From assembly GCF_057098645.1 (NCBI RefSeq), contig NZ_CM169472.1: DNA of 64,000 nt. One strand, 5' to 3'. A program made the position numbers. Shown one piece after another: positions 6,101 to 12,100 of the stretch. How positions within the stretch are numbered: position 1 is the first letter of the stretch; every line of letters begins with the position of its first letter.

Positions 6101-9100
6101 AGTTGCGCCCCATCAAACATGCGTTTGATGCCGGTGTAAAAGCGCAGATAGGGATCGATTATTAATCTGTAAAAATGCCGGATATGACGTCCGGCATACT
6201 TTGATTAACCGTTATTATTACGTCCGCCAGAACGACGACCGCCGCTCATCTGACTGTGACGTTTCACCGCACGACGAATCTGATTCGCCTTCATGCGACG
6301 ACGGTCTTTTTCTACAGCGACTTTAGAGCTGGTTTCTGGCGGTAGCTCCACCAGTTCGCGCAGATAGTTAGTCTGGGCGAGGTCCAGCTCCGTCCAGCCA
6401 CCGCGTGGCAGACCTTTTGGCAGTGGGATATCACCGTAACGAACACGGATCAGGCGGCTCACCTGCACACCAACCGCTTCCCACAGACGACGAACTTCAC
6501 GGTTACGGCCTTCGGTCAGAGTCACGTTGTACCACTGGTTGATCCCTTCGCCGCCGCTGAACTTGATGGTTTTAAAAGCTGCCGGACCATCTTCCAACTG
6601 CACGCCACGACTCAAATCACGCAGTTTCGCGTCGTCAACCTGACCAAATACACGCACGGCATATTCACGTTCAACTTCACGGCTTGGGTGCATTAAACGG
6701 TTTGCCAGTTCACCATCGGTGGTGAACAGCAGCAGACCACAGGTATTAACGTCCAAGCGACCCACGGCAATCCAGCGTGCGCCACGCAGTTTTGGCAGAC
6801 GGTCAAACACCGTTGGACGTCCTTCCGGATCGTTACGGGTACACAACTCACCTTCCGGTTTGTAATAGGCCAGAACGCGACAAATTTGTTCAGCGGACTC
6901 ACGTACCGAAATCAGGTGACCATCGATACGGATTTTCAATCCAGGGGTAACTTCAACACGATCGCCGAGTTTAGCAATTTTGCCATCAACACTCACACGA
7001 CCGGCTTCAATAATAGATTCGATTTCACGGCGAGAACCGTGGCCGGCACGCGCCAGCACTTTCTGTAGCTTTTCGCTCATAGAGCTTCCTTTTGGTGTCG
7101 CCTTCCCAGGCGTCTGATATGCTTTTGTGCAACAGTGAGTCAGAACTTACATCTGACTCACTGATAGTAAAGTCTGTTTGAACTCTTCAGGCCTTAAGTA
7201 AACGACTCGACGTTTTAACTGGCCTGGCTTTGAGGCGCAACATACTACACTATCTTTATGGTTAAAGCTTGTTTCGATTAACATCAGCTTAATTACCAGC
7301 CACCACCGCCTCCGCCACCCGCGCCGCCAGCACCACCACCGGAATAACTTCGCCCCAACAAACTGGTATTGGCCCCCAGACTCAGGTGCATCTGTAATGA
7401 GAACAAAACGCCACTACGGGCAATTTCCGGGGCACTAACAGCCGCTGTGAGTGATGGGGTGATACGTGCGACCCATTCTCTTCCAAGGTTTGCTGAGACT
7501 GCCCAACCTAGCAACGCGTAATCCAGTTTCCGTGTTTCCCCTTTCCGCCGCCGCCCACTGTGTGTTGCTGCCTCTTTACGCGCAAGATAGTTAACGATAG
7601 CTTCACCGTGGGCATAACGTTGCTGCCCAGTTTGGGTAAACTTTGGCAGAAAAATATACCCCATACCAGTGAGATAACCGGTCAGGAAAACAGCGCTAAA
7701 ATAACCCGCTGGCATATACCAGTAAAAGAATACATCTCCGACATTGATATAGAGAGAATAAAAGGCCACGCCTGAACAAATCAGCGGTAAAAACAAAGTG
7801 ATGATGGCACGATTAACGCAAGGCTTGTCATCATCGCGGGCAAACAAAAGCTCAAGGGAACAAAATAAAAAAGGAAGAAGCCAGCAGATCATAATAAACA
7901 TATCGCCCACCAGACTCATTCCTGCCCAGCCTACAGGACTCAGGTTACCGTAAAGAATGAACCGCCCCGGGAATCCTGGAGACTAAACTCCCTGAGAAAG
8001 AGGTAAACAGGATGACTAAAAATACACGTTTTTCCCCCGAGGTCCGTCAACGGGCAGTTCGTATGGTTCTGGAAAGTCAGGGCGAATATGACTCACAATG
8101 GGCGGCAATTTGTTCCATTGCCCCAAAGATTGGCTGTACACCAGAGACTCTGCGTGTGTGGGTTCGTCAGCATGAGCGGGATACCGGGAGTGGTGATGGT
8201 GGACTCACCACCGCTGAACGTCAGCGTCTGAAAGAGCTGGAACGTGAAAATCGTGAACTGCGCCGCAGTAACGATATCCTTCGCCAGGCTTCCGCTTATT
8301 TTGCGAAGGCGGAGTTCGACCGCCTCTGGAAAAAATAATGCCGCTGCTGGATAAGCTGCGTGAGCAGTACGGGGTCGGACCGGTATGCAGTGAACTGCAT
8401 ATTGCCCCGTCAACGTATTACCACTGTCAGCAACAGCGACATCATCCTGATAAACGCAGTGCCCGTGCTCAGCGCGATGACTGGCTGAAGAGAGAGATAC
8501 AGCGCGTATACGATGAAAATCACAAGGTATACGGTGTGCGTAAAGTCTGGCGTCAGTTGTTACGGGAAGGTATCAGAGTGGCCAGATGCACTGTGGCACG
8601 TCTCATGGCGGTTATGGGACTTGCCGGTGTTCTCCGGGGTAAAAAGGTCCGTACTACCGTCAGCCGGAAAGCCGTTTCCGCAGGCGACCGCGTAAACCGT
8701 CAGTTCGTGGCAGAACGTCCTGACCAGCTGTGGGTGGCTGATTTTACTTACGTCAGCACATGGCAGGGCTTCGTCTATGTGGCGTTCATCATTGATGTGT
8801 TTGCCGGATGTATCGTGGGGTGGCGAGTCTCATCGTCTATGGAAACGACATTCGTGCTGGATGCACTGGAGCAGGCGTTGTGGGCCCGTCGGCCGTCCGG
8901 CACAGTCCATCACAGTGATAAAGGTTCTCAGTATGTATCACTGGCCTATACGGAGCGACTAAAAGAAGCAAAACTGCTGGCATCAACAGGGAGTACAGGT
9001 GACTCGTATGACAACGCGATGGCGGAGAGCATCAATGGTCTTTACAAAGCGGAGGTAATACACCGTAAGAGCTGGAAAAACCGTGCAGAAGTGGAACTGG

Positions 9101-12100
9101 CCACACTCACGTGGGTGGACTGGTATAACAATCGACGATTGCTGGGAAGGCTGGGTCATATCCCTCCGGCAGAAGCAGAAAAAGCTTATTATGCTTCCAT
9201 CAGAAACGATGATCTGGCAGCCTGAGTTCACAGATAAAACACTCTCCAGGAAAACCGGGGCGGTTCAGAATGACCGCCAATATTGCCAGTCCACCCCATT
9301 GCAAAAACGTATCAGGCCGGTAAAACGAAGACTGTTTACGCGGCAGATAAAATTTCTGCATCCGTAAAAATGCCCTGCGTAAGACTCTGTTGCGTCTCCC
9401 CGTAAGAACGACCTTATCGCCTTTACGAAATAACGCTTCCAGTAATAACTGTTCTGCGGGCAGTAATACCGCATTATTTCTGGTCACGCCTTCATTAACA
9501 CGAATCAGGATTTGCTGGTTCTTGTCAGACTGATCTTCCAGATGAATTTTTCCTTTCACAATCAGATTTACGATATCGGCACAAAAACCTTTATCGTCGT
9601 AAACCAGCTTCGCATCGAGACGTAACATGCCGGGCGTGTAATCTGGCGGAATGACATCGGTTTCAATCACATCTACCGGCGTAAATTGCGGCCTGCGCTT
9701 CCAGAGATATAACCATCCACAAACCAGGAATAGACACGGAAACCAAATTAACAACGATGACGTGGAGGGTAAAAGAAGATGGCTGAAAATATTCGTCGTT
9801 TGTGGAGTCGGGGCATTGCTAAGTAACGAGTGAGGCCAACGGTAGAGTACCGTAAAATCTTCACGATAAAACGGATCGCTGGATTCAATTCTTCCGTCCT
9901 CAAGGATGCGGCCATTTCGATATGTGTCGCCCTCTTCTCCAGTAAAGAGATCGATTTCGCTAAATGGATTACCCGCGATATCAGGGAACTTGAGTGAAAA
10001 TCGGGTCTTATAGATTTCAAACGGCCAGTGGTTACCAGTCACGTTCCAGATTAACAGATCTGAATCTCCCTCACGCAGGAAAGCATTTTTAACCTGATAA
10101 TGAATTTGATAATGATAGTCGCCTTGAGGCAAGAAACGTTGTTTATCGCCCACGACAATACTCATTAACCCGATATGCCAGTCATGATGCCAGGGTTCAG
10201 GAATACCATCACGGGTGACGCCAACAATATGATAGTTCAGCAGTGTAGCGTCCCCATCAGGCTGCATCCAGAGTCGTGGTAAATCACGATAAAAGCCGTG
10301 CTTAATCTGCTGATTTCGCGCCTGAAAATGAATATTTTCTTTGATGTCGAACACCCCATCCGGTTGCAGAGTGGCTTCAACATCAAAGAGCGAGATCCCT
10401 TCTTCATAAGAAGGGATCTCCGTGTTTTCTGCATAACTTAGAGATGATACAAACAGCCCTGCTATCAACAGCAAAATGCAGCGAAACTTCCCTGCCATAG
10501 TCTTCCATCCGTGGAACGCAATTTATTATAAGAAAGGCTTCACATCACCTACGCCTTCACGCACCACGACCGGCGTATCATCGGTAAGATCAATAACCGT
10601 TGTTGGTTTCTGCCCGAGATAGCCGCCGTGAATAATCAAATCTACCTGTTTTTCCAGACGGTCTTTAATTTCTTCGGGATCGGATTCGGTAAATTCGCTG
10701 CCTGGCAGCATTAGCGAAGTGGAAAGCATCGGTTCGCCCAGTGCTTCAAGCAAAGCCTGCGCAATTGGGTTAGAAGGCACACGCATACCGATGGTTTTGC
10801 GTTTTTCCTGCAACAGACGGCGCGGCACTTCCTTCGTCCCCTTCAGGATGAAGGTATAGTTGCCCGGCGTGTTGTTTTTCATTAAACGAAACGCAACGTT
10901 ATCGACAAATGAATAGGTCGAGAGTTCAGAAAGATCGCGACACATCAGGGTAAAGTTGTGACCGTCCGGCAGCTGGCGAATACGACAAATACGCTCCATG
11001 GCGTTTTTATCTTCAATTTTACAGCCGAGCGCATAGCCGGAATCAGTTGGATAAACAATCACCCCGCCTTTACGCACGATCTCCACCGCCTGGTTGATCA
11101 AACGTTGCTGTGGGTTATCAGGATGAATATAAAAAAACTGGCTCATAATTCCCTCTCTGTGGTGTTCTGCGGCTGTTCCCATAGCTGCCAGACGCCTTCA
11201 ACGCCTGCGGGCAGCCAGAGTTTACGACCCAGTTCGATCCACGGGCATGGCTGATGAAAATCAGATCCTTGTGATGCCCATAAATGATGCTGACGCGCAA
11301 GTGTCGCCAGCTGGGTGCGTTCATTGGGCGATTGCTGGCACTGCGCGACTTCCATCGCGTCGCCGTCGTGTTCGGCAAAATGCGCAACCAATCTTTTCAG
11401 CCATTTAGCACTAAGATTGTACCGCCCAGGATGAGCTAGCACCACCTTACCGCCAGAATGATGAATGACATCAATAGCTTGTTCTATTGTACACCACTGT
11501 GGCGGAACGTATCCGGTTTTCCCGCGCGCCAGATACTTTTTAAAGACATCCGCCATTGAACTGGCTTTGCCGCACTCAACAAGGAAACGCGCAAAATGAC
11601 CGCGCGTCACTGCGCCGCCCTGCGCCAGTCGTTGTGCGCCTTCCAGCGCCCCAGGTATTTGCGCTTTTTCAAGTCTTTCGGCAATTTGCTGCGCCCGCTG
11701 ATTGCGCCGTTCTGTCTGCTGCGCGAGGAACTCACACATTAGCGGATGAGTAATATCAATATTCAGCCCGACAATATGAATTTCATGATTTTCCCAGACC
11801 GTGGAAATTTCCACGCCGGGAATAAGATTCAGCGCCAGTCCCGAACGTGAAATTTCCTCTCTTGCTGGCGCGATTGCAGCTGTGGTGTCATGGTCGGTGA
11901 TCGCCAGGGTGCCGACGCGCATCTCGACTGCACGGTGCACCAATGCTTCTGGCGTCAGGCAGCCATCGGAAGCTGTGGTATGGCTGTGCAGGTCGTAAAT
12001 CACTGCGTAATTCGTGTCGCTCAAGGCGCACTCCCGTTCTGGATAATGTTTTTTGCGCCGACATCATAACGGTTCTGGCAAATATTCTGAAATGAGCTGT

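Follow-up and report, generated by a model that had tools for sequence, protein, structure and literature searches.

An IS629-group insertion sequence in yciQ of an O145:H28-lineage Escherichia coli chromosome

The window analyzed here, a stretch of 64,000 nucleotides from contig NZ_CM169472.1 of the NCBI RefSeq assembly GCF_057098645.1, carries an insertion sequence (IS) of the IS629 group within yciQ, a membrane-protein gene. We regard it as nearly certain that this element transposed into yciQ at codon 410/411 on the chromosome of an O145:H28-lineage Escherichia coli strain, duplicated the trinucleotide GAA at its target and inactivated the gene, and none of the evidence gathered counted against the insertion itself. 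The event is an ordinary, lineage-restricted IS629 insertion, and what is new about it is an undescribed insertion site together with a slightly mosaic copy of the element; no literature dealing with IS629 together with yciQ was found.

The element opens with TGAACCGCCCCGG at position 7958 and closes at 9267 with the reverse complement, CCGGGGCGGTTCA, and each of these terminal motifs occurs once in the window. Its TG...CA termini were paired by a repeat finder as imperfect inverted repeats of 25 nt with 88% complementarity, and with a length of 1310 bp the element agrees with the IS3 family, which is characterized by a size of ~1.2-1.55 kb and imperfect inverted repeats of the form 5'-TG...CA-3'. 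GAA is found directly outside both ends. As a 3-bp match arises by chance in 1 of 64 cases, this duplication was checked against an empty site, and the intact yciQ of the O145 strain RM9872 reads ...GTAAAGAA/TGACCGCC... (the slash marks the insertion point), with one GAA across that point. The single GAA in the empty site shows that the match is a true duplication and did not arise by chance, and its length is that of the 3-4-bp duplications of the IS3 family in general and of IS629 in particular (Rump et al., 2011, PMC3271280). Thus, a preliminary description of this DNA, which had reported a 1310-bp IS3-family element with inverted-repeat termini and a GAA duplication, is borne out. When the element was searched against the window by local BLAST, no second IS629 copy or fragment was found, and a composite transposon was rejected on that ground.

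Removal in silico of 7958-9270, that is, of the IS and one GAA, restored on the minus strand a 1893-nt open reading frame (ORF) of 630 codons with 0 internal stops, in the product of which both DUF2207 domains were found, N-terminal PF09972 (E = 7e-23) and C-terminal PF20990. In 3967 of 5426 complete RefSeq E. coli genomes, the set to which all counts of complete genomes below refer, the joined sequence can be aligned over its entire length with annotated yciQ, and its top matches, at 99.8% over the full length, are all from O145:H28-type strains. The gene order around yciQ in RM9872 is sohB-yciK-cobO-rluB-yciQ-yciO-rnm-trpL, and the joined 630-aa ORF lies in the same conserved rluB-yciQ-yciO-rnm-trp context. 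The two halves, which the preliminary description took for a yciQ gene split by an IS629-like element and proposed to join in silico, therefore form one continuous yciQ. Its coordinates for the 5' fragment (9268-10498) hold, whereas the 3' fragment actually extends over 7293-7957; the range given earlier, 7293-7919, is an internal ATG-started ORF of 208 aa that begins at residue 423.

The joined ORF departs from the yciQ of RM9872 only at ~7321, where 3 nt of the C-terminal glycine tract are deleted in frame. In this tract (7296-7340) the window has one Gly fewer than RM9872, GGGAGGAGGGGGGGW versus GGGAGGGAGGGGGGGW, and the draft contigs with the exact 208-aa yciQ fragment share the deletion. 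An imprecise duplication at the junction was considered as the source of this length difference and rejected, given the position of the difference at ~7321. In addition, megablast matched the joined yciQ to no more than 3976 of the complete genomes but the neighboring trp region to 5423, which suggests that around a quarter of E. coli genomes have a far more divergent yciQ or lack the gene.

The 5' ORF of the interrupted gene runs 21 codons into the IS, which is oriented opposite to yciQ, and stops at 9200, giving a total of 432 aa. A Kyte-Doolittle scan placed the break just ahead of a C-terminal hydrophobic cluster (segments 418-450 and 456-482), so that the truncated YciQ retains the signal sequence, the DUF2207 N-terminal domain and the first transmembrane segment (241-267) and loses the C-terminal membrane part. 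With this cluster lost, yciQ::IS629 is most likely a null allele. Against this loss of function, which is inferred from the truncation, it should be weighed that YciQ is not known to have a function or phenotype. In a scan for promoters and terminators, promoter-like sites were below the number that chance would give, and nothing bore on polarity towards the downstream rluB. The same scan scored as terminator-like, on both strands, a perfect palindrome with a 13-bp stem, GAGATCCCTTCTT-CAT-AAGAAGGGATCTC, which lies at 10392-10420 inside the yciQ 5' coding region.

A 300-bp query across the left junction was found in 0 of the 5426 complete genomes, and misassemblies classically arise at IS copies; both observations could be taken to mean that a repeat was placed at the wrong locus during assembly. 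However, the duplication is a perfect 3-bp copy of a site that is single in relatives, and the junctions were found independently on draft contigs of several assemblies and in one Logan read-set assembly (the right junction on 4 contigs, the left one on 14), which leaves an assembly artefact with a probability close to nil. Specifically, the exact 432-aa fusion ORF is present on draft contigs of GCA_032490195.1, GCA_029357705.1 and others (four contigs were read, L002 and L003 among them), which show 2 mismatches in ~11 kb against the window and end inside the IS, and the exact 208-aa 3' ORF is present on 14 contigs, including the Logan assembly of ERR12122442. Both junctions were recovered in GCA_029357705.1; the right junction is on contigs L002 and L003, and the left one is on contig L013, which is identical to the window at this junction and for 277 nt into the IS. 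The empty result in the complete genomes had raised the possibility of an artefact or of a source outside E. coli, which was accordingly rejected on the strength of these junctions and of a backbone that matches O145:H28 at 100%. The insertion is real, and the strains that share it look like a small clade.

The backbone between 9271 and 21000 is 100.0% identical over 11.7 kb to that of the O145:H28 strains RM12761 and RM13516, and only 29 complete-genome records reach at least 99% identity over this region. This match assigns the window, by its sequence, to a strain of the O145:H28 lineage and not to O157. The preliminary description had favored the latter, as it regarded IS629 as characteristic of O157 lineages of enterohaemorrhagic E. 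coli (EHEC) and the nleG cargo as fitting them. It is true that O157:H7 genomes are rich in IS629, at 22-25 copies each (PMC3271280), that nleG genes lie in the adjacent prophage, and that O145:H28 and O157:H7 have been reported to belong to a common evolutionary lineage (PMC3893438). Nevertheless, an O157-type IS629 in an O157 chromosome is very improbable: the element differs from the IS629 of Sakai pO157 at 61 positions and from O145 copies at only 10-11, the backbone is that of O145:H28, and 3043 of the 5426 genomes contain IS629-like copies that match 80% or more of the element's length, so that the IS is no marker of O157. The nleG genes belong to the prophage and are unrelated to the IS. 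IS629 has been described as the most prevalent IS in O145:H28 (Cooper et al., PMC3893438).

For the comparison of subtypes, pairwise differences were counted over the 1310 bp in pairs of the same orientation only. By this measure the window IS is 10 differences from a chromosomal copy of O145 RM9872 and 11 differences (99.2% identity) from the 'IS629' of pO145_112648_1 (AP019707.1), which its depositors annotated as 'IS629 transposase OrfA/OrfB'. The Sakai pO157 copy, with its 61 differences, has 95.3% identity; a copy labelled 'IS1203 family' by the NCBI Prokaryotic Genome Annotation Pipeline (PGAP), which is itself 5 nt from the Sakai copy, shows 62 differences; and a third type, found in a lysis cassette of O145 RM11626, shows 57. 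Over 795 nt, the window IS is 96.7% identical to a truncated copy that bears the PGAP label 'IS629 family'. IS629-like matches of any coverage occur in 4255 complete genomes, and the closest, at 99.2%, lie in O145, O103:H2 and related strains, none reaching 100%; the O145 type is multi-copy and occupies as many as 40 or more sites in a genome. By the ISfinder convention, isoforms share at least 95% nucleotide identity with the reference copy. These comparisons, together with the IS3-family features, support the assignment of the element to the IS629/IS1203 isoform group of the IS3 family, in line with the IS629-like, IS3-family element of the preliminary description, with the name taken from annotated copies rather than from the ISfinder type sequence. 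Judged by its distances, the window IS is of the common O145/O103-type IS629 subtype. The three-way split, at ~4-5%, agrees with the three reported IS629 sub-types, which likewise lie 4-5% apart and are related to IS1203, to Shigella IS629 and to O26:H11 IS629 (Rump et al., 2011, PMC3271280), the numbering being matched by description.

Both transposase genes are open, as stated earlier, with 108 aa for orfA and 295 aa for orfB. The frame of orfB is -1 relative to orfA (offset 326 nt), and its ATG overlaps the orfA TAA. OrfB contains the triad D135 (WVADFTY), D194 (HSDKGSQY) and E230 (AMAESING), with 35 residues between D194 and E230, that is, a DD(35)E motif in an rve domain. We infer that the A6 run in the last two Lys codons of orfA is the site of a -1 frameshift. 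When such a slip was modelled at the second Lys codon, a 404-aa OrfAB resulted that is 1 aa off the O145 copy. The region is also matched by the Rfam model of the apical loop-internal loop (ALIL) pseudoknot, which scores 120.9 bits (gathering score, 50; E = 4e-32), over model positions 1-117 of 117, and in the RM9872 copy, 10 nt different, RefSeq annotation by PGAP includes an 'AL1L pseudoknot' and a 404-aa coding sequence marked 'programmed frameshift'. Overlapping orfA and orfB in the -1 relation, a DD(35)E rve domain, and an A6 run with a full-length ALIL are thus all found, as expected of an IS3-family element. The exact OrfA protein is present on 851 contigs.

By analogy with IS911, IS3, IS2 and IS150, the ALIL pseudoknot would stimulate ribosomes to slip by -1 on the A6 run and so to produce the 404-aa OrfAB transposase, and OrfA alone would act as a regulator. 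As in other members of the IS3 family, OrfAB would be expected to move the element by copy-out/paste-in transposition via a circular intermediate, and staggered cleavage of the target on insertion would give rise to the 3-bp duplication. In EHEC, the insertion sequence-excision enhancer protein (IEE) additionally promotes IS629 excision (PMC9943667). The element has every sequence feature that activity requires and could be active, as had been suggested.

The copy in the window is slightly mosaic. All 10 substitutions against the O145-type IS629 fall within 79 nt (IS positions 566-644), and the remaining 1231 positions are identical to that type. The interval 8490-8640 of the window is 100% identical to IS629 copies of another subtype, including one in O145 RM11626, and the flanking sites that discriminate the subtypes bound the exchanged tract at 79-199 bp. 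Nine of the 10 changes are synonymous, and the remaining one results in Q63K of OrfB, in which K is the residue of the donor type. The simplest reading of this pattern would be gene conversion between co-resident IS629 subtypes. Some observations weigh against that reading and against an active element: the patch is seen in the window alone, and the draft contigs with the insertion reach only 277 nt and 199 nt into the IS, so that the patch may be an artefact of polishing, which could have drawn on reads from other IS copies; and the intactness of the window copy would permit activity but not prove it. The exact OrfB was found on only two other contigs (L011 and L012), and these were dropped as proof that the mosaic had spread, the DNA there being only 98.9-99.4% identical. 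Contig L011 (GCA_001265875.1, JHSG01000002.1) has at 1503-3930, in a prophage region, two abutting IS629-group copies of different subtypes, a full-length one 95.3% identical to the window IS followed by a 5'-truncated one at 99.4%, an arrangement that could promote recombination between subtypes.

These observations bear on whether the copy still moves. It might be a fixed, immobile relic whose ORFs are intact but dead, the patch being decay or an error of sequencing or polishing; the exact full-length DNA variant was indeed not found elsewhere, with a best match of 99.2% in complete genomes, the exact OrfB is confined to the two contigs just mentioned, and the drafts lend the patch no support. 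We consider such a relic unlikely, because the ends, the slippery run, the pseudoknot and the DDE triad are all identical to those of the multi-copy O145 type, the patch yields a single conservative change to a residue native to another natural subtype, and the insertion, found in no more than a small clade, is thus recent. The chances seem about even that a natural recombinant IS629, with an O145/O103 backbone and a converted tract of 79-199 bp, and its insertion in yciQ together mark a recently arisen sub-clade of O145:H28 with active movement of IS629 and exchange of sequence among its copies.

IS629 insertions in backbone genes are a well-documented source of strain polymorphism in EHEC and the basis of IS-printing typing. 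The yciQ::IS629 junction, absent from the 5426 complete genomes and present in about 14 draft contigs, could serve as a polymerase chain reaction or in silico marker of one O145:H28 sub-clade, and the insertion provides a natural knockout of yciQ, a DUF2207 gene. For the assignment of strains, the lineage inference is corrected in that the combination of IS629 and nleG does not imply O157. If the copy is truly recombinant, it would be a usable epidemiological marker and, in addition, a small case of gene conversion between copies of an IS3-family element.

Beyond yciE, a lambdoid prophage occupies ~21000-55000 of the window (Table 1), and other mobile elements are found there. A second IS3-family element lies beside nleG at ~25900-27250, with a 301-aa rve-domain ORF on the minus strand (25951-26853); its matching copies are labelled 'IS3-like element IS2 family' in RefSeq, and its whole 1.9-kb context occurs in only 8 complete genomes. 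The context of the IS110-family transposase inside the prophage, unlike the yciQ insertion, is 99.9% shared with O145 RM9872 and is found in 27 complete genomes in all.

Table 1. Features of the interrupted yciQ locus and of the neighboring prophage (positions in the window)
Feature	Position	Strand	Basis or context
yciQ 3' fragment, C-terminal hydrophobic segments and glycine-rich tail	7293-7957	-	ORF, joined-gene comparison
Target-site duplication GAA, left copy	7955-7957	none	directly outside IS end
IS629-group insertion sequence (IS3 family), complete, 1310 bp	7958-9267	+	ends, length, sequence comparison
Left inverted repeat, begins TG	7958-7982	+	inverted-repeat pair, 25 nt, 88%
orfA, 108 aa, HTH_Tnp_1 DNA-binding protein	8012-8338	+	ORF; Pfam PF01527, E = 1.4e-12
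ALIL pseudoknot, frameshift stimulator	8293-8409	+	Rfam RF01497
A6 slippery run, final two Lys codons of orfA, directly before TAA	8330-8335	+	sequence
orfB, 295 aa, HTH_21 and rve (DDE) domains	8338-9225	+	ORF; PF00665 (E = 1.1e-25), PF13276
Mosaic patch, all 10 substitutions versus O145-type IS629	8523-8601	+	copy alignment
Right inverted repeat, finishes CA	9243-9267	+	inverted-repeat pair, 25 nt, 88%
yciQ 5' fragment, residues 1-411	9268-10498	-	ORF; DUF2207 N-terminal domain
Target-site duplication GAA, right copy	9268-9270	none	directly outside IS end
nleG effector gene	21856-22503	-	prophage
IpaB/EvcA-family effector	24013-24600	-	prophage
nleG effector gene	24785-25429	+	prophage
Tail tip protein J	29062-32532	-	prophage
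IS110-family transposase (DEDD_Tnp_IS110 and Transposase_20), RefSeq 'ISEc20 family'	38185-39378		inside prophage, beside phage tRNA-Ile and tRNA-Arg
823-aa exonuclease-domain protein	50981-53449		prophage
Lambda-type integrase	53743-54870		prophage

Among known systems, the closest are the IS629 copies of O145 and O103 strains (AP019707.1; RM9872, RM13514 and O103:H2 12009), which share with the window copy the length of 1310 bp, the ends, the layout of orfA and orfB and the ALIL, and differ from it by 10-11 nt and 1 aa of OrfAB; in contrast to the window, the yciQ site is unoccupied in all of these genomes. The IS629 of O157:H7 Sakai (equivalent to IS1203v, labelled 'IS3-like element IS1203 family' by PGAP and, by description, probably sub-type I of Rump et al.) has the same length, terminal 13 nt, 404-aa OrfAB and 3-4-bp target duplications, but differs at 61 of 1310 nt and 14 aa of OrfAB, including residue 109 in the context of the orfA stop, which is I in the window IS and M in Sakai. 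The likeness to IS3411, an IS629 isoform, is drawn via the full-length match to the Rfam ALIL model, which is built on this group. The arrangement agrees as well, with pairing between the apical loop of stem 1 and an internal loop of stem-loop 2 (PMC5009743), and that review, citing Mazauric et al. (2008), gives this stimulator as characterized in IS3411 and reported in at least 27 other IS elements. Finally, IS911, IS3, IS2 and IS150 resemble the element in the orfA/orfB arrangement with a -1 frameshift, DD(35)E, TG...CA ends and a 3-bp duplication, whereas they belong to other IS3 groups and employ hairpin or H-type pseudoknot stimulators instead of an ALIL.

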